Assembly (NCBI GenBank): GCA_965219385.1
Contig: CBDCNM010000002.1
Coordinates: 2,840,305 to 2,860,304 of the forward strand
Reading direction: 5' to 3'
DNA: 20,000 bases
DNA from: Candidatus Latescibacterota bacterium
GTDB lineage: Bacteria; Latescibacterota; UBA2968; UBA8231
Both the position numbers and the translations under genes were made by a program. Shown here piece by piece: positions 33 through 19,356 of the stretch. The notes beneath the pieces are model-generated. The model had not been told where the DNA came from, made no database searches, and saw only the letters and a list, made by a program, of their open reading frames with translations. Each line of letters starts with the position of its first letter. Position 1 is the first letter of the stretch.

Positions 33-426
33 TCAGGTTCGCCTGTCCTCGGCATCCGCCCGCCTCCGCAACTGCCCGAGGCGGCGCCCCAGCTTCTCCA
101 CTTCTTCTTCAATCAACCTCAATTCGTCGTCGACGCTTATCTCGCCGTTCAGGGCCATTGTGCTTGCGCCACTCTTCGGCCTCGCGCTCGGCCTGGGCCT
201 CGTCCATCGAGTTGATGATCACGCCGATGAACAGATTCAGCATGATCACGGTGCCCGGCAGCACGAAGGACACGAAGTAGAGAGCCCCGCCGAGGACCGG
301 CAGCCCCTTTGAGGCCTGGCGCAACGGGGCCAGGGCAAAATCCTGGTAGCCCGGGTAGGCATCGCTGCCGTACATCTGAATGTACATCACGTCGGTCCAA
401 TCCTCCAGGGGCACCACCCGGAACAT
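33..426 (-). pseudogene. Remnant of a bacterial voltage-gated Na/Ca channel (BacNav-like): pore helix, selectivity filter, S6 and C-terminal coiled coil only
   Basis: ORF 109-426 reads [14 protein letters not shown]...[30 protein letters not shown], matching the BacNav pore/S6 pattern (F..vTLExW...NLFIGVIVN.M). S1-S5 are absent because the sequence stops at the inverted repeat at 429. Removing one base at 158/159 continues the protein as [41 protein letters not shown] (stop at 33-35), a typical coiled-coil tail. Confidence 0.85.
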
Positions 427-428
427 TA

Positions 429-454
429 AGAAGCCGTCTTAAAATTCCGGGTGC
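429..454 (+). repeat. Left copy of 26-bp inverted repeat (IS/MITE terminal-inverted-repeat-like)
   Basis: AGAAGCCGTCTTAAAATTCCGGGTGC; the first 20 bp are an exact reverse complement of 19520-19539, and 25/26 match 19514-19539. Confidence 0.9.
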
Positions 455-459
455 ACACC

Positions 460-1164
460 TCATGCGAACCGCTCCCGCTGCTGCAGGCGCAGCAATCCGA
501 ATAGCGTCGCCAGCACGGCCCCGACCAGCAGGTATGCCCGGTTGTAGAACGTCGTCGCTTGCTGGACGATGGATTCGTAGGCTTCCACCTGCGCGAAGGG
601 ATTGTGGTACAGGTTCCAGCGGCTGCCCTCCAGAGGCTCCGTCAGCATCCAGAAAAACAAGCCCAGGACCAGCAACAGAGCGGCGGTGCCGTTGCCGCTG
701 CGGATTAGCGTCGCCAGCATGAAGCCCAGGCTGCTCAGGAAGGAGATGGGAAACATTAGATGGAAGACCATGGACCACACCGAGAAGTCGGCCAGGGCCA
801 TCCTGCACAGGGCCGCCAGCAGCAGCAACATAGCGGCGATCACCAGCTGCTGCACGCCGTGGCGGGCCAGCCACACTTTGTAGCGGTAGTCGGGAATAGC
901 GAAAAGCGTCTCCAGCATGCGACCGTCCACATCGCTCTGCACACAGTAAGCCGACGGGTAGAACATCAGCAGCACCCCCGGCACCAGCAGGAAGTAGTAG
1001 ACTAGGGCCGCGCTCGGTGGCACCTCTTCCTGGGCCGTGTGCACGACGACTACGGTGCAGAAGATGAGCAGCGCCAGCAGCAGGAAGTAGATGAACTTGC
1101 CGGCGAACACCTGGCTGGCACTATAGCGCGCGAAGGCGGCCATACTCCGGAACCGGGCCAGCAT
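460..1164 (-). CDS. Small ABC-2-type permease / membrane subunit (234 aa, ~6 hydrophobic segments)
   Basis: Multiple TM stretches; DVDGRMLETLFAIP resembles the ABC-2 coupling helix (E.E.GTLE.LL..P); start overlaps the upstream stop (TGATG at 1166-1162). Confidence 0.8.
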   Translation of the reverse strand: MLARFRSMAAFARYSASQVFAGKFIYFLLLALLIFCTVVVVHTAQEEVPPSAALVYYFLLVPGVLLMFYPSAYCVQSDVDGRMLETLFAIPDYRYKVWLARHGVQQLVIAAMLLLLAALCRMALADFSVWSMVFHLMFPISFLSSLGFMLATLIRSGNGTAALLLVLGLFFWMLTEPLEGSRWNLYHNPFAQVEAYESIVQQATTFYNRAYLLVGAVLATLFGLLRLQQRERFA

Positions 1165-4100
1165 CAGGCCGGCCTCTCCAGCAGCCAGAGGTACGAGTCC
1201 TCCAGGGTCGGGGTCACTTCTTCGGCCTCGGGTAGGGGCTGCTCGTCCGCCAGGATGCGCACCCGGATGGATTCGCCGTCCCGCATGTGGTGCACGATCC
1301 GGGTGCGATGGCGCAACTCCTCCAGGCGTTCTTCGCTGATCCGTGCCTGCCAGACCGCACCCCTGGTCAGCTCCACCATCTCCCGCGGGCTGCCGTGGAA
1401 GCGGACCTGGCCCTGGCCCATGACGACCAGATGGTTACAGGAACTCGAAATATCCTCGATGATGTGGGTCGAGAAGATCACCACCCGGTTGCGGGCCAGT
1501 TCGGCCAGCAGGTTGCGGAAGCGGATGCGCTCGCGCGGATCCAGCCCCGCCGTGGGCTCGTCCACCAGCAGGATGCGGGGCAGGCGCAGGAGCGTCTGGG
1601 CGATCCCGACCCGTTGCTTCATCCCTCCCGAGAACCCGCCGATCTTGCTGTCCCCGCTCTCCTCGAGGTGCACCGACCGCAGGGCGCCCTCCACCACTTC
1701 CCGCCGCTCTCTGGAGTCCCACTGTCCCTTCAACAGCGCCTGGTAGTCCAGGAACTGGCGGGCGGTCATGTTCTCGTAGGTGCCAAACTCCTGGGGCAGG
1801 TAGCCGATCAAAGCCTGCAGCTCCTCCCGCTGTTGGGTCAGATCGATGCCGTTGATGCGCACCTTCCCCAGGCTCTGCTCCAGTATGCCGCAGACGATGC
1901 GCATCAGCGTGGTCTTACCGGCGCCATTGGGCCCCACCAGACCAAACATGCCGCTCTCGATCCTCAGGGACACTTGTTCCACGGCGGTGAATGGACGCTT
2001 GCGTTTGCCGATGAGGGGTAGCGCTCCTACCAGCAAATAGAAGGCGCGGCGGCTGCGCCGGAAGCGACCGGTTATGGCATCGACATTCACCACGCCGCTG
2101 TGCAACCACCGCACGCCCCGGTTTACCACTGCTCCGAGGTACCATACTGCCCCCGCTGTGATCACCAGAGGCATATCGTCCCCCCTGTTGCGGAACCACA
2201 ACACGTGCGCCAGGGGCAGCAGCCAGTAGCACAGGTGGTAGAGCAGACGTGTAGTGCGGTGCAGGAAGCCGGCTCCCCGCGGCAGCCAGATCCACGCCAG
2301 GCTCAGAACGTGGACGTAGAAGGCCACGGACAGGATGATGGTCCAGACCGCGCTCTCCTGGTACAGGTAGACGAAGTAGAAATGGAAGGCGAGCACGGGC
2401 AGTCGCCATGCCAGTGCGGCCCGGCGTCCACCCTGATTGTCGCCCGCGTCCGGCTGGTGCTGTGCCTGGCGCTCGCCGCGACCCCATTGCCGCGCGAAGC
2501 GGGAGCGCTCATCGTACACCTTGACCACATTATCGATCGAGATCTGCAGCGGCACCCCTTCCGGGATCAAAGCGGCCCGGCTGCGACGCAGACTCGACCG
2601 CGCGAACCAGGTGAACGCCGGTACCAGACCCAACAGGACGATGCCGTCGGCGAATTGCCAGAAGGTGGAGTCCACGTTGTGGTGTATCAGGGCGGCGCCG
2701 GCGGCCAGGATCGCCAACTGCACCAGATTGATCCACCAGTCCAGCTGCCCCAACCACGCCACAGCCGTGGCCAGTCCGAAGTAAACCGTTGGCACCAGCA
2801 CCAGGGTAAAAACCGTCCCCGCCACCAGGCCGCCGATCACGGCGATGGCGAAGGGGGCGCCAATGGTGGCCACGTACTCGGCCTTGCCCATGGCCAGGGG
2901 CAGCATGGCCAGGATGGTAGACAGGGCCGTGATCAGAATCGGCCGCACCCTGACCTGCCCGGCCGCCAGTAGCGCCCGTCCCAACCGGTACCCCTGCCGT
3001 TGCAGCAGGCGGGCGTAGTCGATCAGCATGATGCCGTTGTTGACCACCACGCCCAGGAGGATGAGGAAGCCCACCAAGGCATTGGCGTTGAAGAGCGAGT
3101 TGCCCGTCAGGATCAGGCCCCACAGGGCGCCGATGGTGGCCAGCGGCAGGGTTATCATCATGGCCAGAGGGGCCACCAGAGACTCGAATACCGCGGCCAG
3201 GATCATGTAAATGAGCACCACCGACGCCCCGATCAGGAAGTAAAAGGCGGAAAGGTCGGTCTCGTCATGCACTACCTCGATTGACATTCCCGGCGGCAGG
3301 GACAGATCGGCGGCCAGCCGATCCACGGCCGCCCGGGCCTCGTCCAGCAGGTCGTTCGTCCCGGTGATTTCCTCCTCGAACTGGTAGGTCAGCTCTGCTT
3401 CCCTTTGCTGGTTCACCCGGTTGAAACCGCCGTATCCTTGCGCATAGACCAGGTCGGCCAGCTGCAGCAAGGGCACGTCACCCCCGTCCACCGTGCCGAC
3501 CCGCAAGCGGCGCAAATCTTCGATCCGGCGCTGCGGATATCCCGTGCTCGTCAACGCCACCTTGATCGGGTCGGACCCTCTCATCACCTGGACCGAAGGG
3601 TTCAACTGGGGCTGGAAGCCCGACAGGGCCGCGGCGATCGCGTTAGGCTGGACCCCGAAGTGGGATATGGCCGTCCGGTCGATCAGTAGATCGATTTCCG
3701 GTTGGCCCCGATTGATACCTGGCGACGAATAGCGGACCCCGGGTTGCCGCTCCAGATTGTAGCGGATGTCGTCGATGATGGTCTTCACCAGATCCATACT
3801 ACTGCCGCGCACGACGATGCGCTCGCTCGCCTCGCCAATTCCGAGCAGGCGTTGAAAGGCCCGGCCACCACCTGGACCACCGCCCCTGCCGCCGTAGCGC
3901 GGGTCGGTCCGCGGCTGTTCCCAGGAGAGATGAACCTGCGGGAAGGCTTTCCTGAGCCGGTCGTAGATCTCCTTCTTGATCGCCGCCAGGTTGCGCCGGG
4001 CGATTTTCTGGTAGCCCTCCTTTAATTCGAAAGCCAGCCGTAGGTTGTCGACTTCGATGTCGATGCGTCGCTTTGCCACCTCCTCGATGTCCGCCAGACG

Positions 4101-5846
4101 CGCGTCCATTCTCCGGGCCTGTTCATCGGCCAGCTGCAGGGTCATTCCTCCGGGTATGGCAGCATACAGATCGAAGCTGGTCAGCTCTACTTCCACGGGG
4201 CTGTTGACGCTGACCGTCAGGCTCAGAAGAAGGCTGACGAGGAAAGCGACCACTGCAATGCCCGTGGTCCGTCCCGGAAAACGCATGCACGACTTGAGCA
4301 GCAGCGAGTAGATCTGCACCATGCGGTGACGCTGCGACACGGCGTTGAAGGTGCGCGACCGGTCGGTTGGGCGGCGGGCGAACAAGCGATAGGTGAACAC
4401 CGGGATCAGCAGCATGGCCACCAGCAGCGATACCAGCAAGGTGCAGATGATGGATACTCCGACCTGCTGTCCCAGGAGGCGCACCAGAAAATTGTCGGAG
4501 AAGACGAAGGGGAGAAACACGCACACCGTGGTCAGCGTCGTCGCCAACACCGCCCGCCACACCTGCGCTACCCCGGTGACCACCGCCTCGTGTGCCTGGC
4601 GCCCACGCCCCAGCTGCCGGTAGATATTTTCCAGCACCACAATGCTGTTGTCCAGCAGCATGCCCACGGCTATGGCGATGCCCACCAGGGATAGCATGTT
4701 GAGGCTTATGTCGAAGGCGTAGAACAGGTTCATGGCGATCAGCATTGAAATCGGTATGGCCGCCGCCACGATCGCCACCAGGGGCAGATTGCGCAGGAAC
4801 ACCCAGAGGATGCCGACCGCCAGCAGCCCGCCCACCACGGCCAGCGCCTTGATATCGCCGATGTTTTCCTCGATCGCCTCGGCGGTGTCGCTCTGGATCA
4901 CCAGTTCGACGCCGTCCGGATCCAGGTTCCGATTCAACTCGTCCACCACCTTGCGCGTCGCCCGCGACAGGGCCAGCAGGTTGGCCTGGCGGTCGCTGAC
5001 CAGGGTGATGGAGACCGCTTCCATACCGTTGATGCGGGCGATGCTCTCGCGCAGGGCCCCCCCCTCCACCACGGTGGCGATCTGCCCCAGCCACAGCGGA
5101 CCCTCGGCGCGAACGATGGTCTCTTTTAGGTCCTCTATGGAGCGCAGATCGCTGGAAAGGTTGACGAAGATCCGCTGGCCCCCGTTCTCCACCTGACCCA
5201 GGAAGCGACGGGGGCGAGAGGATTGGGAGATCCGCGTCTCTACCTCGGCCAGGGTCAGGCCGTGGCTGTGCATGATTTCTTCGCTGAGCAGCACCTCCAC
5301 CAGCTGCTGGCGACCCCCGTACACCGCCACGTTCGCCATCCCTTCCACGCTTTGCAGATCCGGCACTACCTTTTCGTCCACCACATTGCGAATCTGATCC
5401 AGGGTACCCACCCCGCGGGCCTGCAGCGACATGAACTGACTGGCCAGTTGTTCGGTGTCGATCTTGAGCACCATGGCCCGGAAATCATCGCCCAGCTGGG
5501 CCCGGGTGGCGGCGACGCGTTCCTCCAGCTTGAGGAAGGCGTACTGCTGAGCGCTCCGCCGGGTGTAATAGACGAACAGAGTCGCCTGCTGCTGTTCTAT
5601 GTACGACTCGATCCTTTCTATGTCCTCCAGACCCGCGATGGCGCTCTCCAGAGGGATCACCGCCTGCCGTTCGATGAAGTGCGGGTCGGCGTCGCGAGCG
5701 CTCTGTACCTGCACCACGAGCATGGGCAGCTCCGCGGCGGGGATGAGCTCCACGGCCAGACGGTCGTAGGACACCGCCCCCAGCAGGCATCCTCCGATCA
5801 GGAGCATGCACACCAGCACCGGTCTGTGGATGAAGAAGGCAATCAC
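1164..5846 (-). CDS. AcrB/AcrD/AcrF-family RND permease fused to a C-terminal ABC ATPase (1560 aa)
   Basis: One uninterrupted ORF. RND motifs: FFIHRPV, GMLLDNSIVVLENI (TM4), YMILAAVFES, GVVVNNGIMLID (TM10), RVRPILIT (TM11). ABC motifs: GPNGAGKT (1911-1934), GYLPQ, FSGGMKQR, ILLVDEPT, STH. GTG start 13 nt after the upstream RND stop. Confidence 0.93.
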   Translation of the reverse strand: MIAFFIHRPVLVCMLLIGGCLLGAVSYDRLAVELIPAAELPMLVVQVQSARDADPHFIERQAVIPLESAIAGLEDIERIESYIEQQQATLFVYYTRRSAQQYAFLKLEERVAATRAQLGDDFRAMVLKIDTEQLASQFMSLQARGVGTLDQIRNVVDEKVVPDLQSVEGMANVAVYGGRQQLVEVLLSEEIMHSHGLTLAEVETRISQSSRPRRFLGQVENGGQRIFVNLSSDLRSIEDLKETIVRAEGPLWLGQIATVVEGGALRESIARINGMEAVSITLVSDRQANLLALSRATRKVVDELNRNLDPDGVELVIQSDTAEAIEENIGDIKALAVVGGLLAVGILWVFLRNLPLVAIVAAAIPISMLIAMNLFYAFDISLNMLSLVGIAIAVGMLLDNSIVVLENIYRQLGRGRQAHEAVVTGVAQVWRAVLATTLTTVCVFLPFVFSDNFLVRLLGQQVGVSIICTLLVSLLVAMLLIPVFTYRLFARRPTDRSRTFNAVSQRHRMVQIYSLLLKSCMRFPGRTTGIAVVAFLVSLLLSLTVSVNSPVEVELTSFDLYAAIPGGMTLQLADEQARRMDARLADIEEVAKRRIDIEVDNLRLAFELKEGYQKIARRNLAAIKKEIYDRLRKAFPQVHLSWEQPRTDPRYGGRGGGPGGGRAFQRLLGIGEASERIVVRGSSMDLVKTIIDDIRYNLERQPGVRYSSPGINRGQPEIDLLIDRTAISHFGVQPNAIAAALSGFQPQLNPSVQVMRGSDPIKVALTSTGYPQRRIEDLRRLRVGTVDGGDVPLLQLADLVYAQGYGGFNRVNQQREAELTYQFEEEITGTNDLLDEARAAVDRLAADLSLPPGMSIEVVHDETDLSAFYFLIGASVVLIYMILAAVFESLVAPLAMMITLPLATIGALWGLILTGNSLFNANALVGFLILLGVVVNNGIMLIDYARLLQRQGYRLGRALLAAGQVRVRPILITALSTILAMLPLAMGKAEYVATIGAPFAIAVIGGLVAGTVFTLVLVPTVYFGLATAVAWLGQLDWWINLVQLAILAAGAALIHHNVDSTFWQFADGIVLLGLVPAFTWFARSSLRRSRAALIPEGVPLQISIDNVVKVYDERSRFARQWGRGERQAQHQPDAGDNQGGRRAALAWRLPVLAFHFYFVYLYQESAVWTIILSVAFYVHVLSLAWIWLPRGAGFLHRTTRLLYHLCYWLLPLAHVLWFRNRGDDMPLVITAGAVWYLGAVVNRGVRWLHSGVVNVDAITGRFRRSRRAFYLLVGALPLIGKRKRPFTAVEQVSLRIESGMFGLVGPNGAGKTTLMRIVCGILEQSLGKVRINGIDLTQQREELQALIGYLPQEFGTYENMTARQFLDYQALLKGQWDSRERREVVEGALRSVHLEESGDSKIGGFSGGMKQRVGIAQTLLRLPRILLVDEPTAGLDPRERIRFRNLLAELARNRVVIFSTHIIEDISSSCNHLVVMGQGQVRFHGSPREMVELTRGAVWQARISEERLEELRHRTRIVHHMRDGESIRVRILADEQPLPEAEEVTPTLEDSYLWLLERPA

Positions 5847-5859
5847 GATGGCGTCGTTC

Positions 5860-8800
5860 TCACATGGGTCTGGATTGCAGCCGGTCGCCGCGCGCCAGCA
5901 GGTGATAGGCGCAGGGGATCACGGCAAGCGTGAGGGCGGTGGAGGTGACAAGGCCACCGATCACGGCAACGGCCATGGGGGCGCGCAGCGCGGCGCCCTC
6001 CCCGGCGCCGATGGCCAGGGGCAAAAGCGCCAGCATGGTAGTCGCGCTGGTCATCGCGATCGGCCGGATGCGCGTCTGACCGGCGCCGAGAATGGCTTCC
6101 CGCAGCTCCTGCCCCGAGCGGCGGTTCTGATTGATGCGGTCCACCAGTATGATGGAGTCGTTGACGGCGATGCCGGCCAGCATGATCACCCCGATGAAGG
6201 ACATCACGTTGAGCGGCATCGACAAGGCCATGAGTCCAAGGACCGCTCCGACGCCCGCCAGCGGGATGGTCAACAGGATGACGAAGGGATGCACCAGGGA
6301 CTCGAACTGCGCCGCCATCACCATGTACACCATCACCACGGCCAGTATCAGGGCGAAAAGCAGGTTTTCGAAGGCATCCTGGCGCAGCTTTTCCTCGCCG
6401 GTCACCTCGTAGCCGTACTCGGGCGGCCACGCAATCGTGGCCAGTTCCGCCTCTACCTGGGCCGCGACCTGGTCGAAAGGCCGGTCTGAACTCAGGTGGG
6501 CGCTTACCGTGGACGTGCGCATCTGATTGTTCCGCGTTATCGCCCGGGGCGACAGGGAGGGAACCAGCCGCGCCACCTCGTCGAGGCGCACGCGTCGGCC
6601 CTCCGGCGCCTCCAGCATCACATTTTCCAGCTCCTGCAGCGACAGGCGCGGCCGTTGGATGACGATGTCGCTGTACTCGCCCAGCTGCTGAAGCTGCCCC
6701 GCCGCCTGCCCCGAAAGCAGGTGCTCCAGCTGGTTGCCTATGGCGTCGATCTGTATGGAGTGCTGCGCCGCACGGGTGCGGTCGATCTCCAGGTCTATCT
6801 GGGGGTGGCCCTCGCCCAGGCCGGTTTCGACGTTGGCGAGACCGTTCATCCCGGCCAGCCGCTCCTCCACCTGGCCGGCCAGCTCGGTGAGGATCTCCAG
6901 ATCCTGCCCCTTGATTTCTACCTGCAGCGGCGCCGCCGTGCGCCCGAGGCTGATCTCCAGGGCCGTCTCCTGCTGCACGAACCGCGCCTCCACATCCGGC
7001 AGCGCCTTTAGCTCCGCGCCCAGGGCGGCAATCAGCGCGGTCGGTGCCAGCGAACTGGCCGGCTCGAAGATGATGTGGATGGCGGCGCTGTTCTCATCCG
7101 CCAGCAGATCCCGCACGTCGGTGCTGCTCCCGGCGGGACCCACCCGCGCGTAGAGGTGTCGCAGGTGAGTGCCGAAGTTCTGCGTCAGGAAAGTTTCGAG
7201 GTTGCGGACCACACCCTCGGTGCGGTCCAGGTGCGTTCCCTCGGCCAGGGTCAGTTCTACCGACAGCTCACCGCGGCCGGTCCGCGGCATGAACTCGCTG
7301 CCCAGCATCGGCAGCAGCGCGGCCGTGCCGGCCACCAGAAGCAGGCCCGCAAGCAGCACCGGGATGCGGTGCTTCAGCAAGCCCTGCAACAGGCTGGCGT
7401 AGCGCGGAAAGTGGACGGCATTCACCGTTGCGCCGCGGCCCTTTCCGAGTAAACGCGAGCACAACATGGGGATGACGACCATGGCGACGAAGAGGGAGGA
7501 CAGCAGCGAGAACGCCACTGTCCACGCTTGTTCCCGGAAGAGTTCCCCGGCGGCGCCGTGGAGGTAGACGATGGGAAGGAAGACGACGATGGTGGTTGCC
7601 GTCGAGCTGGTGATCGCGCCGCCGACCTCGCCCGCGCCCAGCACCGCTGCGTCCTTCAGGGGGGCGCCGTCCTCCAGCTTTCTGAAGATGTTTTCCAACA
7701 CCACGATGGCGTTGTCCACCAGCATGCCGGCACCTAGGGCCAGACCGCCGAGGGTCATCAGGTTCAGCGACAGGTCGCCGAAGTACATCAGGTTGAAGGT
7801 AGCGACGATGGAAATGGGGATGGCGATGCTGACCACCGCCGTCACTCCGAGGCGTCGCAGGAACAGGAACAACACCAGCATCGCCAGGAAAATGCCGAGC
7901 AGTCCGGCCTGCTCTACCTCGGCGACCGCCGCCTCGATGAAGCGGGCCTGGTCCTGCACCACCTCGATCCGGTATCCCGGTAGCGTCCGTCGCAGCACCT
8001 CTAGCTGCTGGTGGATGCTGCCGGCCGCGTCAATGGTGTTGAAACGCGCCTCCTTGTATATCTCCAGGCCGATGCAGCGCCTCCCGTCCAGGCGCACCAC
8101 GTTCTCCGGCTCGCTTAGAATGGTGCGCACCTGGGCCACTTCGCGCAGAGGTACCGGGGTCTGCTCAACCGTGGGCGCGGCCGTTGTGGCACCCGTCCGG
8201 GCCGCTGTTTCCGGGGTCCTGGCGGCTACGATCAGATGGTTCAGTTCCTCCGGAGAGGCGAACTCCCCCACCCCTTTGATGAGGTAGCGGCGCCCCATCT
8301 CCACGATGGATCCCCCCACCGTGTTGCGGTTGGCATTCTCGATCGTCGACTTCAGCTGCTCGGCCGTAATGCCGTAGGCCTCCAGGGTGTAGGCATCGGT
8401 CCGCACTTCCACCTGGCGCCGCCGCTCCCCCACCAGTTCCACCGCCGCGACTCCCGGCAGCCGAATCAACTCGGTGCGAATGATGTTCTCCGCGGTCTGG
8501 CGCAGGGCGTCCAGACCGCTCACTTCCGGGTGGTAGAAGGCGGCCACCACCACCGGCCGGGCATTGGGATCGTGCTGGCTGACCGCGACCTCCTCCGCGT
8601 TCGAGCGCTGCGCCTGATCGGCCATCATCTTTTGCAGGTCCAGGAAAGCTTCGTCCATGTCGACCTGCCAGCCGTATTCAACCGCAATCAGGGCGCGTCC
8701 AGTCTGGGCGATGGAGTGCACATTCTCCACTCCGCGCCCGCGCGCGGCCACCGCCTCCAGACGGGAGACGAACTGCCGCTCCATCTCCTCCGGCGGCCGC

Positions 8801-8961
8801 TCCCCACCCTTCACCTCGATAAACAGTCGGGGATTGTCCAGCTCGGGGAACAGGTCCATCCCCAGGCGCTCGAAGGAGATGTATCCCAGCAGCAGGATCG
8901 CCAGGATCAACATCAGCACCGTGGTCGGGTAGCGAACCGCGAATCGCGCCAGTCCATGCAT
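5860..8961 (-). CDS. AcrB/AcrD/AcrF-family RND permease (1033 aa)
   Basis: FAVRYP N-terminus, GMLVDNAIVVLENI, VYMVMAAQFES, GIAVNDSIILVD, RIRPIAMT; canonical RND length; GGAGG upstream of the start. Confidence 0.95.
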   Translation of the reverse strand: MHGLARFAVRYPTTVLMLILAILLLGYISFERLGMDLFPELDNPRLFIEVKGGERPPEEMERQFVSRLEAVAARGRGVENVHSIAQTGRALIAVEYGWQVDMDEAFLDLQKMMADQAQRSNAEEVAVSQHDPNARPVVVAAFYHPEVSGLDALRQTAENIIRTELIRLPGVAAVELVGERRRQVEVRTDAYTLEAYGITAEQLKSTIENANRNTVGGSIVEMGRRYLIKGVGEFASPEELNHLIVAARTPETAARTGATTAAPTVEQTPVPLREVAQVRTILSEPENVVRLDGRRCIGLEIYKEARFNTIDAAGSIHQQLEVLRRTLPGYRIEVVQDQARFIEAAVAEVEQAGLLGIFLAMLVLFLFLRRLGVTAVVSIAIPISIVATFNLMYFGDLSLNLMTLGGLALGAGMLVDNAIVVLENIFRKLEDGAPLKDAAVLGAGEVGGAITSSTATTIVVFLPIVYLHGAAGELFREQAWTVAFSLLSSLFVAMVVIPMLCSRLLGKGRGATVNAVHFPRYASLLQGLLKHRIPVLLAGLLLVAGTAALLPMLGSEFMPRTGRGELSVELTLAEGTHLDRTEGVVRNLETFLTQNFGTHLRHLYARVGPAGSSTDVRDLLADENSAAIHIIFEPASSLAPTALIAALGAELKALPDVEARFVQQETALEISLGRTAAPLQVEIKGQDLEILTELAGQVEERLAGMNGLANVETGLGEGHPQIDLEIDRTRAAQHSIQIDAIGNQLEHLLSGQAAGQLQQLGEYSDIVIQRPRLSLQELENVMLEAPEGRRVRLDEVARLVPSLSPRAITRNNQMRTSTVSAHLSSDRPFDQVAAQVEAELATIAWPPEYGYEVTGEEKLRQDAFENLLFALILAVVMVYMVMAAQFESLVHPFVILLTIPLAGVGAVLGLMALSMPLNVMSFIGVIMLAGIAVNDSIILVDRINQNRRSGQELREAILGAGQTRIRPIAMTSATTMLALLPLAIGAGEGAALRAPMAVAVIGGLVTSTALTLAVIPCAYHLLARGDRLQSRPM

Positions 8962-8979: not shown

Positions 8980-10056
8980 CTACCTTTCGGTCCCTGAAGT
9001 TCCCCTGGCTACCTTGACCTTGGAGCGGTTCCGCAGTGTTTCGAATCCCTCCACGACCAGCTGCTCGTCCACCTCCAGGCCACTGAGCACCTCGATTTCC
9101 AGGCGATTGCTCAATCCCGTCTCCAGCCGGCGCTCCAGAGCCAGTCCCTTCTCCACCACGAACACGCCCCTGTTGTCCCCCCGGTCGAGGACGACCTCCT
9201 TGGGGATCACCACGGCCGAGTCCTTGGCGGCCACCACGATGTCCACCTTCACGAACATGCCGGGACGGATCGCCAGCGAGTCGTTGGCGATGCTCAAGGT
9301 CGACTTGAACATGCGGCTCTCCTCGTCCAGCACGGGCGACACCTGCTCGATATGACCGATCAGGGTATCCACCGCCGCGGTGCCGTAGTGGGTCACCAGG
9401 GCTGTCTGCCCTGGCTGTACCCGGTTGATCTCCTTGCCCGGGAGGGACACTTCGGTGTAGAGCACGGCGTATTCCATGATCCGCCCGATCGGCCCCCCGG
9501 TTTCCAGCAGCTGCCCGGAGCTGTGGTGCTCCAGGTCTACCAGCACGCCGTCGAAGGGGGCGCGGACCTCGAGTTTGGCCAGCTGCAGCTCGGCATTCTC
9601 CAGACTGTAGCGCGCATCGATGAAAGCCCGCTCCGCCGCGGTGAGTTCCCGCAGGGTGATACCCCCCTTCTCGAATATGGCCTGCTCCTTCTCGTATTCC
9701 CGCAGCGCCGCGGTGAACGCCAGTTTCTTCGAGTCGATGCCGACCTGGTTCACCAGCTCCGGATTTTCCAGCATCGCGATCAGCTCGCCCTCCGGCACGT
9801 GATCCCCCATGGCGTAGGGTGCGCCGGTGCGCGGGTTGGCTTGCGGCTGGTACAGGCCCGCCTGCAGACACTGCAGCTGGGCCTCCCGCGTGGCCTGCGC
9901 CGTACTGGTGGCGGTCACGTATTCGGCGATCGGTCGTCGGGTGACCATCTCGACCCTCACCGGAATGGCGGATTCGATGTCGATCTGGGGGCCCTCTTCT
10001 TCACAGCTGCACAGCACTGCGGCCAACAGCGCGGCGGGAATCTGTCGAGGCTTCAT
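8980..10056 (-). CDS. RND periplasmic adaptor (membrane fusion protein), probable lipoprotein (358 aa)
   Basis: Lipobox-like LAAVLCS-C; helical hairpin followed by EVRAPFDGV; IRPGMFVKV; IPKEVV; EVLSGLEVDEQLVVEG; ATGA overlap with the TolC stop. Confidence 0.93.
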   Translation of the reverse strand: MKPRQIPAALLAAVLCSCEEEGPQIDIESAIPVRVEMVTRRPIAEYVTATSTAQATREAQLQCLQAGLYQPQANPRTGAPYAMGDHVPEGELIAMLENPELVNQVGIDSKKLAFTAALREYEKEQAIFEKGGITLRELTAAERAFIDARYSLENAELQLAKLEVRAPFDGVLVDLEHHSSGQLLETGGPIGRIMEYAVLYTEVSLPGKEINRVQPGQTALVTHYGTAAVDTLIGHIEQVSPVLDEESRMFKSTLSIANDSLAIRPGMFVKVDIVVAAKDSAVVIPKEVVLDRGDNRGVFVVEKGLALERRLETGLSNRLEIEVLSGLEVDEQLVVEGFETLRNRSKVKVARGTSGTER

Positions 10057-14928: not shown

Positions 14929-15837
14929 TCAGCCCTCGAGCGTCCCTTCCAGGCTCATGTCCTGGCCGATCGACTGCATGTAGTGGATGTAGGCGTCCTC
15001 CAGGTTGGGGTCCAGCCTCTCGGCTCCCGTTCCTGGTGGGGCGTCGGCCACAAGGCGCACCTCGTAGCCCTCTGTGGCCGGCACCATCGATACCACCGGA
15101 TAGCGTTCCTTGAGGCCGTCCACATCTGCGTAGGTGGCCGCCATCTTCCACACTTTGCCCCTGGCCCTGGCCACCAGATCCGTGGGCGCGCCGTTGAAAA
15201 CGATCTCCCCCTCATGCAGCAACGCCAGATCTGTACAGGTGGATGAGATGTCGCCGACGATGTGGGTCGACAGAATGATCGCGATCTCCCCCCGAGCCAG
15301 GTCGGCCAGCAAATTGCGGAAGCGCAACCGCTCCTGCGGGTCCAACCCGACGGTGGGCTCGTCTACCACCATGATCGACGGATCGCCGATCAGGGTCTGG
15401 GCAATCCCGAGCCGTCGCTTCATGCCGCCCGACAGCTTGCTGGCCGACCGGTCTCTCACGTCGAACAAGCCGACCTGTTCCAGCAGCCGGTCCACCCTCT
15501 CCCGCCGCTCCCGCTTCCGCCGCAGACCAGCCAGCGCGGCGCCATAGTCCAAAAACTCCCAGGTCGCCAGCTTTGGAAAGCGGCTGAAGTCCTGGGAAAG
15601 GTAGCCGATCATCCGCCGGATCTGGGCCCGGTCCCGCCGCAGATCCAGGTCGTCGAACCGCACCTGGCCCGAAGTCGGCTTGAGCAAGGTCACCAGGATC
15701 TGCATCAGGGTGGTCTTGCCGGCGCCGTTGGGCCCCAGCAGACCGAACATGCCATTGCCGATCACCAGGTCCACCTCGCGCAGGGCATATTTTCCGTCTC
15801 GGTAGCGCTTGCTCAGCTGCTGGATTTCAATACGCAA
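14929..15837 (-). CDS. ABC transporter ATP-binding protein, ABC-2/drug-exporter type (302 aa)
   Basis: GPNGAGKT, LSGGMKRR, IMVVDEPT, STH, C-terminal PNLEDAY; TTG start with AGGAG upstream. Confidence 0.95.
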   Translation of the reverse strand: MRIEIQQLSKRYRDGKYALREVDLVIGNGMFGLLGPNGAGKTTLMQILVTLLKPTSGQVRFDDLDLRRDRAQIRRMIGYLSQDFSRFPKLATWEFLDYGAALAGLRRKRERRERVDRLLEQVGLFDVRDRSASKLSGGMKRRLGIAQTLIGDPSIMVVDEPTVGLDPQERLRFRNLLADLARGEIAIILSTHIVGDISSTCTDLALLHEGEIVFNGAPTDLVARARGKVWKMAATYADVDGLKERYPVVSMVPATEGYEVRLVADAPPGTGAERLDPNLEDAYIHYMQSIGQDMSLEGTLEG

Positions 15838-15955: not shown

Positions 15956-17638
15956 TCAAGAGGCAGGTGTTTGGCGGTCGGATCCGGAGAGGGGTATCAC
16001 CCTCACGTCTATCTCATCGACGACGATTTCGCCGGTCAACCCGGCTCTGGGCGTGGCCAGGTGGATACCCAGGAAGTTATCGCCGTCGATGGCGATGTCC
16101 GGTGTCAGATCGAAGATGAGGGTAGAGTACGGCGGCAGCGGTCTACCGATATTGACGGAGCGCCCGTCGGCGTGCCAGGTCCGCCGGATCGTTGCAGAGG
16201 GGATCGGGAATCCGTTCATCTCGATCTGTACTTGCTCGTCCGCTTGCAGTCCCTGGGCGCGGATCGCAATGTAGGCATGGCGGATGTTGACCGCCTTCTC
16301 ACAGAGGCGCAGGCGGTACTCCTGACGCTGGCCGGGCCTGGACCGCGCCAGCACTATCTTGTCGTCCTTGATAGCGCCGGTGGCCGCCATGCCAGGGGCA
16401 CCGTGGTAGTCTACTCCACCCAGCATCGAACGAAACAGATAGGTGCGTGCTGCAGCCGCAAGCTTGTCCGGCTCCTTGAGATCAGCCAGCATGGCCAGTT
16501 CGCCGGGAAAGTTGCCGATCAAATTGCCGGTGTAGTGCTCCTGGAAGTTGAAGATAGAGATGCCGTCCGCACCGGCACCATACATGTTGTTGGCGATGGC
16601 CCGGTAGTGCTCGCTCTTCATGGGATTGAGGTAAACCCGCGACTGGAAGGCGATGTGCTCTTCGGTTCCGCTCTTCTTGCCGGTGAACGACCAGGGGGTG
16701 GGGTCGCTGCGGGCGTCGGTGGCGCTGCAGAACGGCAGGATGCCCGGGAACAGGCGGCATTGCGCGTCCTGCGTCAACTCGAAAAACTCCTCCCACCGGG
16801 CGTTGGGGTTGGCGTACATGGCTTCGCTGGGGCTGACATAGCTGATGAGGTCATCCGCGATCCAGGTGGGGATATCGAGGCCGCAATCGTGGCACTCGTC
16901 GATGGTCTCCGGCACCCGCACACCCAGCAGTAGCTCCCTGCCGCGCTGCCGGCCGTAGTGGTCCAGCATCTTGCGGATGCGTCCGATAAGCTCGGTCATC
17001 AGGGGCTGGCGCTGGCGGGATATGGACCGGGGATGGGGAAAGTGATTGCAGCTGCGAAAGGTAATCTCGATGCCGTCGATGTCGAAGCGGCGCGCGATCT
17101 CCTCGATGGCTTCGAAGTGATAGTCCCGCACTTTTGCGAAGGAAAAGTCCAGGAGGTTACCCGGCTTTTTGAGCGGAGAGGGCGGCAAGTCCACGAGCTT
17201 GTACTGGGGATGGTCGTGAAACCATCGAGCCGCCTGCGACGGGGCGCCGTGGTCGTCGCCGAAGCGCGCACCAGCGATGAATTTCATCCCGCGCTGGTGC
17301 GCCCGTTCGCAAAAGATATCGATGGGATTGATGCCCTGGTCCAGCAGGGGAATCCAGCGCTGGTGCTGCGGACGCTGGTCGTATTCGTACCTGTCGGAGC
17401 GGAAATGCAGGACCCATCCCTGCCCGAAGACCTCCTGCCCCAACACGTCGGCCCCGCTGAGCGCGAAGTCGTCCACCAGACGATGGATCTGCTCAGGGGT
17501 CGCCGGGTCGGAGGTATAGGGTTCGCGGGCATAGCTGGAAAGGTCGGCCATGAACAGTAGCCGGATGTCACCCTGCGGGGCGCATGGGCGCGGCCCAGGA
17601 GGGGTGTTGGCGGAATCATGTCCATCCCTGTTTGTCAT
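15956..17638 (-). CDS. Glycoside-hydrolase-like TIM-barrel protein (GHL10/DUF187-like) with C-terminal beta domain, no signal peptide (560 aa)
   Basis: ERAHQRGMKF, WFHDHPQY, LDFSFAKVRDY...EEIARRFDIDGIEITFR, GLDIPTWI and GADGISIFN fit this family; GGAGG upstream of the start. Confidence 0.65.
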   Translation of the reverse strand: MTNRDGHDSANTPPGPRPCAPQGDIRLLFMADLSSYAREPYTSDPATPEQIHRLVDDFALSGADVLGQEVFGQGWVLHFRSDRYEYDQRPQHQRWIPLLDQGINPIDIFCERAHQRGMKFIAGARFGDDHGAPSQAARWFHDHPQYKLVDLPPSPLKKPGNLLDFSFAKVRDYHFEAIEEIARRFDIDGIEITFRSCNHFPHPRSISRQRQPLMTELIGRIRKMLDHYGRQRGRELLLGVRVPETIDECHDCGLDIPTWIADDLISYVSPSEAMYANPNARWEEFFELTQDAQCRLFPGILPFCSATDARSDPTPWSFTGKKSGTEEHIAFQSRVYLNPMKSEHYRAIANNMYGAGADGISIFNFQEHYTGNLIGNFPGELAMLADLKEPDKLAAAARTYLFRSMLGGVDYHGAPGMAATGAIKDDKIVLARSRPGQRQEYRLRLCEKAVNIRHAYIAIRAQGLQADEQVQIEMNGFPIPSATIRRTWHADGRSVNIGRPLPPYSTLIFDLTPDIAIDGDNFLGIHLATPRAGLTGEIVVDEIDVRVIPLSGSDRQTPAS

Positions 17639-18411: not shown

Positions 18412-19356
18412 CTACGAAAATTGATCGATGCTGGCCAGGGCGCGGGTTATGCGCCGGCGCAGCGCGACCACCGCGTCGTCGTCCCATTTGTAGAACCCCT
18501 GGCCCGACTTGACCCCCAGGTCGCCACGCTCTACCATGTGGCGCACCAGGTCCGGGGTCTGGCTGTCCTTCTCCAGGTCGGGGAAGAGCTGGTCGCAGAT
18601 GGCCGCGATGGTGTCCCACCCGGCGATATCGAAAACCTCCAGAGGACCTGCCACGGCCAGCCGTCTCCCGAAGCTGGTCTTGACCACCGCGTCCACGTCC
18701 TCCGGGGTTGCGATCCCCTGCGCTACGATGGACAGGGCCTCGCGCAGCAGGGCGAACTGCATCCGGTTGCCGATGAACCCCAGCGATTCCTTTTGGAGCA
18801 CCACGGGCTTCTTGCCCAGCCTGGAGAATAACCCGGTGATAAGCTCGACGGTTTCATCGCTGGTCCGCGGCCCGCGCACCACCTCGATGAGGGGCAGCAA
18901 ATAGGGCGGATTCCACCAGTTCGCCACCACCACCTTTTCCGGCCGCCTGGTCAACGGGGCCAGCTGGCTGGTCATGAAGGACGAGGTATTGCTGGTCAGG
19001 GTGGCGTGCTCTGGGGTACAGCGGTCCAGGTCGGCGAAAACCTCCTGCTTGAGGCCCAGGTCCTCGAACACCGCCTCCACCACAAAGTCCACCCCGGCAA
19101 AGGCGTCGGCGAGGGAGACGCTGGGGTGGATGCGGTCGGGTACCGGTCCTGCAATATGCGGCTCAACCAGCCCCTGTTCCACCAGCACCTCCAGGGTTTT
19201 GCGGACGTTGTCCATGGACGCCCGGAGCTTTTCGTCGGTGGTGTCGACCAGCGCGACGTCGTAGCCTGAGAGGGCGAATTGCAAGGCGATGCCGTGGCCC
19301 ATGAGGCCGGCGCCGACGATCCCGATGTGCTGCACCTCTTCAGGATTCATGTGCAC
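18412..19356 (-). CDS. 3-hydroxyacyl-CoA dehydrogenase family NAD-binding protein (start at GTG 19356 or ATG 19350)
   Basis: GIVGAGLMGHGIA Rossmann motif, VVEAVFEDLGLKQ, SNTSS, GFIGNRMQ, GPLEVFDIAG, GVKSGQGFY. Confidence 0.92.
   Translation of the reverse strand: MHMNPEEVQHIGIVGAGLMGHGIALQFALSGYDVALVDTTDEKLRASMDNVRKTLEVLVEQGLVEPHIAGPVPDRIHPSVSLADAFAGVDFVVEAVFEDLGLKQEVFADLDRCTPEHATLTSNTSSFMTSQLAPLTRRPEKVVVANWWNPPYLLPLIEVVRGPRTSDETVELITGLFSRLGKKPVVLQKESLGFIGNRMQFALLREALSIVAQGIATPEDVDAVVKTSFGRRLAVAGPLEVFDIAGWDTIAAICDQLFPDLEKDSQTPDLVRHMVERGDLGVKSGQGFYKWDDDAVVALRRRITRALASIDQFS

Follow-up and report, generated by a model that had tools for sequence, protein, structure and literature searches.

A stretch of 20,000 nucleotides (nt) from Candidatus Latescibacterota bacterium (assembly GCA_965219385.1, contig CBDCNM010000002.1, positions 2,840,305 to 2,860,304), here called the window, encodes a protein in which a complete resistance-nodulation-division (RND) permease is joined to a complete ATP-binding cassette (ABC) ATPase. 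The two machines are usually seen as separate solutions to export, the one powered by an ion gradient and the other by ATP. The gene occupies positions 1164..5846 of the minus strand as a single open reading frame (ORF), P0001, with a GTG start, 1560 amino acids (aa) and no internal stops. Relatives of the fusion occur in several phyla, and the gene belongs to a cassette of seven that also encodes an unfused RND paralogue, a free ABC ATPase, two putative ABC permeases, a periplasmic adaptor and an outer-membrane factor. The RND of the fusion is referred to below as RND2 and the unfused paralogue as RND1. The gene content suggests an ABC-2 exporter tethered to a tripartite RND pump, a reading that is weighed against its alternatives after the evidence has been presented.

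The fused protein

Pfam ACR_tran (PF00873; cut-off 28 bits) matches aa 2-1023 of P0001 with 515.6 bits (E 3.1e-154) and covers profile positions 2-1018 of 1021, as in a full-length RND permease. ABC_tran (PF00005; cut-off 25 bits) matches aa 1290-1433 with 99 bits (E 4.4e-28). An earlier note on this DNA, made from the sequence and its ORFs, had described an RND ending near 2775 that continues, in one stop-free frame, into an ATPase with intact motifs, with neither a separate ATPase start nor a leftover stop at the junction. All of this held: the RND part ends at about aa 1025, that is nt 2772, the junction has no such start or stop, and the Walker A, Q-loop, signature, Walker B D-E and H-loop residues are all present on translation and do not vary in any of the 29 full-length family members. 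The joining of two complete proteins is thereby confirmed. The main features of the gene are the following.

1164..5846, minus: RND2::ABC fusion (P0001), 1560 aa, defined by ORF, Pfam and family alignment
2772..5846, minus: RND permease domain, aa 1-1025, with transmembrane helices (TM) 1-12 and two periplasmic loops (ACR_tran aa 2-1023)
1167..1991, minus: ATPase core and C-terminal extension, aa 1286-1560 (ABC_tran and motifs)
1908-1934, minus: Walker A, GPNGAGKTT (coordinates checked by translating the exact stretch)
1791-1793, minus: Q-loop, Q1352 (motif read)
1623-1631, minus: ABC signature, SGG (coordinates checked by translation)
1557-1562, minus: Walker B, D1429-E1430 (coordinates checked by translation)
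1464-1466, minus: H-loop, H1461 (motif read)

The best solved relative of the RND part is MdtB (9lyq_B, E 2.7e-72). Its docking-domain stretch, aa 171-280, is colinear with residues 182-292 of CusA, and since CusA is trimeric this gives modest support to an RND of the trimer type. The closest solved relative of the fused ATPase by sequence is the second nucleotide-binding domain (NBD2) of ABCA3 (E 2.5e-53); by fold, in Foldseek comparisons, the closest are TM_1403 (4yer, E 1.1e-17), ABCA4/7/3, MetN and NosF. At the end of the gene, the stop codon TGA overlaps the ATG of the small permease gene by one base.

Authenticity and distribution

For the junction, a check of read coverage had been proposed in the earlier note, and contigs from three studies now support it without a difference. 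Contigs of four public runs were aligned to window positions 400-6000. Runs of two studies yielded one 6932-nt contig that spans the entire region with 0 differences, although one of these two studies may be the source of the assembly itself. In a third study a contig bridges positions 1509-2897, which include both junctions, again with 0 differences. Four apparent joints in the contig alignment were considered as rearrangements and rejected, since they rest on 21-22 letters of unrelated contigs.

The same domain pair is found widely. Among the best 120 proteins matching aa 1000-1560, PF00873 and PF00005 were present together in 120 of 120, and 111 of these proteins are 1522-1621 aa long. Gemmatimonadota, Latescibacteria, Zixibacteria, Deltaproteobacteria and Aminicenantes are among the sources named, a spread over several phyla. 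Public annotation at NCBI names only one half or the other, as "efflux RND transporter permease subunit" or "ATP-binding cassette domain-containing protein"; the JGI annotation of relatives of the fusion carries a double name.

It had been thought possible that the fusion was unique to this assembly and that the genes were split in all close relatives. The opposite was found. Of 31 genomes compared, namely the window's own and its relatives, 17 have a full-length, stop-free fusion, at identities of 36-83%. In a collection of species-representative genomes 80 loci were kept, and 38 of them have matches to the RND as well as to the ATPase; RND2 and the ATPase are in one frame in 37 of these. In the lone exception, L035, frameshifts break all of the cassette genes, a sign of poor assembly rather than of decay of a single gene. 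With a profile of the linker only, the family was detected in half of the phylum's genomes (84 of 168), among them 34 of the 52 of high quality, and in 27 of 49 genera, mostly as single-copy matches in open frames of about 1570-1600 aa. In one relative (G042:C278:1434-2269) a TAG stop lies within the linker region and the match falls in two frames, as in a pseudogene or a sequencing error. Four contigs of 159-204 nt from one metatranscriptome run, labelled sponge metagenome, are identical to the gene within window positions 2095-4732, which shows its presence in an RNA library and hints weakly at expression.

The same architecture thus recurs in independent genomes far beyond chance, and the fusion family is almost certainly real. 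An origin of P0001 by loss of a stop codon or by chimeric assembly is refuted by the agreement of contigs from three studies and by the occurrence of the fusion in dozens of independent genomes, and its probability is negligible. The physical tethering of an ABC engine to an RND permease, which the earlier note had put forward, is therefore genuine and conserved.

Six additional helices at the junction

Where the earlier note saw two extra hydrophobic segments between the RND and the ATPase, an AlphaFold2 model has six membrane-length helices, four of them interrupting the ATPase fold. The model covers aa 1000-1560 and was built from an alignment from 38 genomes (mean predicted local distance difference test, pLDDT, 80; predicted template modelling score, pTM, 0.62); its numbering plus 999 gives the numbering of P0001. 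From the N-terminus it consists of the last RND helix, two membrane-length helices, a beta-strand, a short helix, four membrane-length helices, another short helix and the remaining ATPase, which starts at about aa 1286. The elements that are new relative to the two parent domains, and the displaced strand, are as follows.

2577..2738, minus: linker helices TM13-14, aa 1037-1090 (modelled helices at aa 1037-1057 and 1061-1090; hydropathy peaks agree)
2514..2543, minus: first beta-strand of the ATPase, aa 1102-1111, separated from the rest of the domain (modelled strand)
2097..2435, minus: membrane insertion TM15-18, aa 1138-1250, inside the ATPase (modelled helices at aa 1138-1162, 1166-1186, 1194-1221 and 1225-1250)

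The model thus shows P0001 as a membrane protein of 18 helices in which the first ATPase strand is split from the Walker A strand by four of them. The block around the first strand was modelled with a pLDDT of 91 (model residues 101-110). The free ATPase of the cassette aligns to the fusion only from its own residue 18 onward, leaving out its own first strand; in the fusion this strand lies about 180 residues upstream of the remaining ATPase, and K1109 and Y1111 in it are invariant. Across the linker and insertion region W1031, K1109, Y1111, P1211 and P1277 are invariant. In AcrB-type pumps the C-terminus of the RND is cytoplasmic. Since the two extra blocks contain even numbers of helices (two and four), the ATPase would stay on the side of the RND C-terminus, in the cytoplasm.

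A search with the linker and insertion (aa 1026-1290) gave 73 matches at E ≤0.001 among 1.84 billion representative proteins, and no homologues outside the fusion family were found among these representatives. Fifteen of the 73 are 1550-1585 aa long and match at about residues 1030-1300; the others are shorter, and five of the shorter ones that were inspected look like fragments or miscalls. One match, 526 aa long, has its initial Met at TM13, as either a split form or a wrongly called start would. No clear stand-alone family of linker plus ATPase was seen among the 73 matches, within which rare split forms are possible. Another of the matches, the 442-aa gene call P0134, has an odd leading peptide and an unrelated N-terminus joined to part of the linker and ATPase, and looks chimeric. 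By Foldseek, no solved chain matched the model of aa 1000-1560 beyond its ATPase part (TM-score on the query ≤0.40), and no solved counterpart of a membrane insertion between the first two ATPase strands was present among the matches.

A second, shorter architecture was also encountered. Two loci (L049:9968-14290 and L053:11483-15847) encode RND::ATPase fusions of 1441 and 1455 aa without extra helices; they are distant (26-29% identity), and their gene order is unlike that of the main cassette. In both, the last RND helix is followed by a short amphipathic stretch and then by the first ATPase strand, with only about 50 soluble residues ahead of the Walker A strand. As fusions lacking the six-helix block exist beside those that have it, merely joining the domains does not require the block.

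Residues of the proton relay

In AcrB-type (HAE-1) pumps the relay consists of an Asp-Asp pair in TM4, a Lys in TM10 and an Arg in TM11. By alignment, the solved pumps MdtB, CmeB and others have "DD" in TM4 and "KN" in TM10. At these places P0001 has "DN" and "NN", an incomplete AcrB-type relay of which it retains just the first Asp and the Arg of TM11.

4650..4652, minus: TM4 Asp399, the sole acidic residue left of the AcrB-type relay, aligned to the first Asp of "DD" in MdtB and CmeB

Asp399, N936, N937 and Arg968 are invariant in 29 of 29 family members. The TM4 Asp that the earlier note had singled out for mutants is therefore present and invariant, in a relay that is already non-canonical.

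A loss of the proton relay brought about by the fusion was considered and rejected. Among the RND paralogues of the window's genome, P0001 counted, TM4 is "DN" in 6 of 9 and TM10 is "NN" in 5 of the 7 that could be aligned; the TM10 Lys occurs in none of the alignable paralogues, and "DD" in TM4 occurs in 1 of 9. Since "DN" and "NN" are found in most of the unfused RNDs of this genome, the pattern belongs to the RND subfamily and not to the fusion. It was also considered whether RND1 supplies an extra Asp in TM10. The orthologues of RND1 have "DN" in TM4 in 33 of 34 cases, and in TM10 "ND" in 16, "NN" in 17 and "SN" in 1 of the 34. The window's own RND1 has "ND", but this idea was rejected because "ND" occurs in just 16 of the 34 orthologues. 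An acidic residue in a membrane helix of RND1 (TM10) evidently comes and goes among lineages. With their invariant ATPase motifs, with Asp399 and Arg968, and with a relay pattern like that of unfused RNDs, both engines of P0001 look functional.

The seven-gene cassette

The fusion is the sixth gene of a cassette in which all genes are on the minus strand and are close-set or overlapping. The order is free ATPase, large permease, outer-membrane factor, adaptor, RND1, RND2::ATPase and small permease. The six companions of the fusion are listed here.

14929..15837, minus: free ABC ATPase (P0124, 302 aa), cassette gene 1, motifs canonical
11558..~14926, minus: large permease "TMDbig" (P0125), ABC-2-like, its real start near aa 76 of the listed ORF
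10053..~11555, minus: outer-membrane factor (TolC-like), start approximate (Pfam OEP, E 3.9e-42)
8980..10056, minus: periplasmic adaptor, or membrane fusion protein (TIGR01730 RND_mfp, 161.5 bits against a cut-off of 94.9)
5860..8961, minus: RND1 (P0002, 1033 aa), unfused paralogue (ACR_tran, E 1.2e-216)
460..1164, minus: small permease "TMDsmall" (P0003, 234 aa), a putative ABC permease by its nearest Atlas cluster and predicted docking

A tripartite RND set of permease, adaptor and outer-membrane factor is thus encoded together at the gene level. The start of the adaptor gene overlaps the stop of the gene for the outer-membrane factor; the latter protein scores 76.7 bits with TIGR01844, under the cut-off. 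Among the 38 loci the free ATPase is present in 29, the outer-membrane factor in 34, the adaptor in 35, RND1 in 35 and the small permease in 34. All ten cassette labels occur in 24 of the 38, and the misses are all at contig or locus ends; in one metagenome-assembled genome the upstream cassette genes missing from the locus sit on another contig. The same gene order recurs in records titled Gemmatimonadaceae, Calditrichaceae and Latescibacterota, and in those of many Bacteroidota, including Draconibacterium, Maribellus, Marivirga, Prolixibacter, Parabacteroides, Bacteroides and Rikenellaceae.

No flanking family was conserved in more than 4 of 36 loci, and the neighbours gave no clue to the substrate. 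Since flanking genes do not recur, the seven genes form a unit. From its gene order and distribution, the cassette appears to be an old, accessory and self-contained module. In the window the upstream neighbours include one on the minus strand at 15956-17638 for a protein of 560 aa with a sub-threshold match to GHL10 (glycosyl-hydrolase-like), and another at 18412-19356, also minus, for a 3-hydroxyacyl-CoA dehydrogenase; neither is conserved beside the cassette in other loci.

ATPases and permeases of the ABC side

The free and fused ATPases are 45% identical over 271 aa, a C-terminal extension included. Among NCBIfam models the free ATPase scores best with DrrA, yet its 192.5 bits fall short of the cut-off of 312. 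The fused ATPase is likewise under the curated cut-offs, with 164.8 against 402.6 for GldA (TIGR03522) and 161 against 312.45 for DrrA (TIGR01188). Judged by these similarities, the two are paralogues of the ABC-2/DrrA/GldA/ABCA class.

Neither in Pfam nor in NCBIfam did the small permease P0003 match a family. In the Atlas, the cluster closest to it (score 0.99) carries the automatic name "ABC-2 type transport system permease", and the helices of P0003 were counted by hydropathy. Its association with the fused ATPase was examined by complex prediction, in three runs with three controls and with alignments made by the authors. The interface score ipSAE (interaction prediction score from aligned errors) was 0.66 in all three runs, compared to 0.00 for the best of the three controls; this mark is reached by 116 of 157 solved complexes and by 2 of 215 mismatched pairs, counts that are rough because our own alignments were used. 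The runs share at least 93% of their contacts, and the pLDDT of P0003 is at least 77. In the predicted interface the N-terminal helix, a conserved loop (aa 81-97) and the C-terminus of P0003 face aa 1316-1381 and 1417 of the fusion, which is the region of the Q-loop and helical subdomain. P0003 is therefore predicted to dock on the fused ATPase through the classical coupling interface of ABC transporters; the only residue of the linker in confident contact is aa 1085.

The large permease P0125 has a weak match to ABC2_membrane_2 (21.6 bits against a cut-off of 27.2) and one to Golvesin_C (43.8 bits). In its AlphaFold2 model (pLDDT 83, pTM 0.79) the helical membrane domain is followed by a long seventh helix and then by about 820 aa on the periplasmic side. 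By Foldseek the periplasmic part resembles the M1 aminopeptidase IRAP (8cgp_B, E 9.3e-20, 652 columns), with further matches to ERAP1/2 and to the lanthipeptide peptidase EryP. The HExxH and GxMEN motifs of such enzymes are missing in 28 of 28 members of the P0125 family, and the protein does not qualify as an M1 aminopeptidase. As modelled, this part is a conserved M1-like pseudo-peptidase followed by a beta-sandwich of the Golvesin_C type, and the M1-like portion may bind substrate. A shared origin of the two permeases is only hinted at and would at best be distant. With a permease predicted at the coupling interface, the ABC half of the system appears to be a real transporter and not a lone ATPase.

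A proposed mechanism and its alternatives

The presence of a second RND, a second ATPase and two permease genes is the content required by a 2:1 RND heterotrimer and a heterodimeric ABC transporter. On the preferred reading, to which a probability of about one half is assigned, a heterodimeric ABC-2 exporter is tethered to one protomer type of a tripartite RND pump built from two paralogues, so that a step driven by ATP would supply one driven by protons. The fused and free ATPases would pair as one heterodimer, and the two unlike permeases would form with them a single ABC-2 (type V) transporter. RND1 and RND2 would form a heterotrimer with one fused protomer per trimer, a stoichiometry that the earlier note had guessed without the other cassette genes in view and that is plausible from the gene content. 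A single fused protomer would bring exactly one ATPase to the complex, so that the threefold symmetry of the pump and the twofold symmetry of the ABC engine could be reconciled, with the ABC transporter held covalently against the RND1/RND2 heterotrimer. The ATP-driven module might then lift its substrate, an amphipathic or peptide-like compound, out of the cytoplasm or the inner leaflet, and the module of RND, adaptor and outer-membrane factor, driven by an ion gradient, might expel it across the outer membrane. The tether would set both the stoichiometry and the hand-off. A fuller form of this proposal, in which the ABC-2 exporter and the heterotrimeric RND make up one dual-energised machine that carries the substrate over both membranes in two coupled steps, and the six-helix block is the mechanical link or part of the substrate path, is offered tentatively, the odds being somewhat against it.

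Several observations weigh against the tethered-exporter reading. Both the ATPase heterodimer and the RND heterotrimer are deduced from gene content alone. With the second Asp of TM4 and the Lys of TM10 missing, an ion drive in the style of AcrB is an assumption. The pass in the docking prediction may reflect a likeness to solved complexes of ABC permeases and ATPases. The homology of P0003 and P0125 is weak, with no match in BLASTP and an hhalign probability of 16% (E 0.0016). The predicted complex, with its single confident contact at aa 1085, leaves the role of TM13-18 unexplained. The cassette is absent from half of the genomes of the phylum and is therefore accessory, and the evidence of expression, four short contigs in one RNA library, is a weak hint only.

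It is unlikely, but deserves consideration, that the modules are merely co-assembled, an independent ABC-2 exporter and a tripartite RND pump having been fused for joint production or placement without any hand-off. Each module appears complete alone, fusions of adjacent genes are common, and the coupling of the modules is not shown by any measurement here; against this, the ABC genes bracket the RND genes, the order and the fusion are kept across phyla, the linker with its invariant residues is under selection, and its 73 matches include no stand-alone family of linker plus ATPase. Even if co-assembly were the whole explanation, the domain architecture would be new, though of modest interest. 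The linker is also central to the quite unlikely proposal that the RND itself is driven or gated by ATP, the ATPase dimer acting on the RND membrane domain through TM13-18, with the permeases as accessories; ATP would either replace the ion gradient or gate the pump. Such a role would suit linker helices and an insertion that are family-specific, conserved and without an assigned partner in the predicted complex, and the incomplete AcrB-type relay might be read in the same way. That pattern is, however, shared by unfused RNDs of the same genome and hence is no adaptation to ATP; moreover, two dedicated permeases are kept, one of them predicted at the classical coupling interface, and the short-linker variant of the fusion manages without any extra helices.

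It is very improbable that RND2 has become an inactive scaffold, its periplasmic domains serving to recruit the adaptor and outer-membrane factor, as the periplasmic domain of MacB does in MacAB-TolC. RND2 is more diverged than RND1 (515.6 compared to 722.2 bits with ACR_tran), and tripartite ABC pumps are known to exist, as noted in a review of tripartite systems (PMC8277102). Yet the invariance of Asp399, N936, N937 and Arg968 in all 29 members, in a pattern matching other RNDs of the genome, speaks for a working permease, and the fusion is accompanied by a separate, intact RND1 in 35 of 38 loci. The tethered exporter remains the preferred reading.

Comparison with known systems

In the literature searched, from which subscription journals were excluded, no description of an RND-ABC fusion was found. 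Papers that pair PF00873 with PF00005 are, by title and abstract, surveys of metagenomes or genomes, and at that level describe no fusion. In the portions consulted of the 2021 review on tripartite systems, "fused" is used only for MacB and SecDF and no RND-ABC fusion appears (PMC8277102). RND2::ABC is thus an undescribed combination of two well-known machines. Its conserved weld would provide a ready system for studying the coupling of two energy sources in one path, for the sharing of a complex by a threefold pump and a twofold engine, and for the access of substrate from the cytoplasmic side to the periplasmic entrance of an RND. Bench study is possible, since the cassette occurs in cultured Bacteroidota; records with it are titled Marivirga tractuosa, Marivirga sericea, Prolixibacter bellariivorans, Draconibacterium mangrovi, Maribellus maritimus and Parabacteroides massiliensis.

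MdtABC-TolC and MuxABC-OpmB likewise have two adjacent RND paralogues with one adaptor gene. We know of no Mdt or Mux protein with an ATPase, and of no ABC genes in Mdt or Mux operons. P0001 is neither MdtB/MuxB (269 bits against a cut-off of 1584) nor MdtC (260.9 against 1774); it also falls below NCBIfam RND_permease_2 (NF033617; 460 against 1250), and its relay residues, "DN" and "NN", differ from the "DD" and "KN" of MdtB. MdtBC is described as a heterotrimer (PMC8277102), the form of assembly proposed here for RND1 and RND2.

MacAB-TolC, too, combines an ABC ATPase with an adaptor and an outer-membrane factor into a system that spans the envelope. MacB differs in fold, with four helices and a periplasmic domain of its own. 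The ATPase of MacB is fused to its own permease (PMC8277102), whereas that of P0001, which belongs to the ABC-2/DrrA/ABCA class, is joined to an RND permease. The ABC-2 or type V exporters (ABCA1/3/4/7, NosFY, DrrAB, GldAFG) are the nearest to the fused ATPase by sequence and fold. ABCA proteins have a very large extracytoplasmic domain, and so does the large permease of the cassette. In CFTR, NBD1 carries a regulatory insertion of about 30 soluble residues after the first ABC strand; the insertion of P0001 is at the same place in the fold, with about 175 residues and four membrane helices. For two energy sources that serve one substrate in succession there is a precedent in SecDF and SecYEG-SecA, a proton-driven protein of the RND superfamily and an ATPase machine (PMC8277102). 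Unlike the halves of P0001, these are separate proteins, their substrate is an unfolded protein, and they have no duct through an outer membrane.

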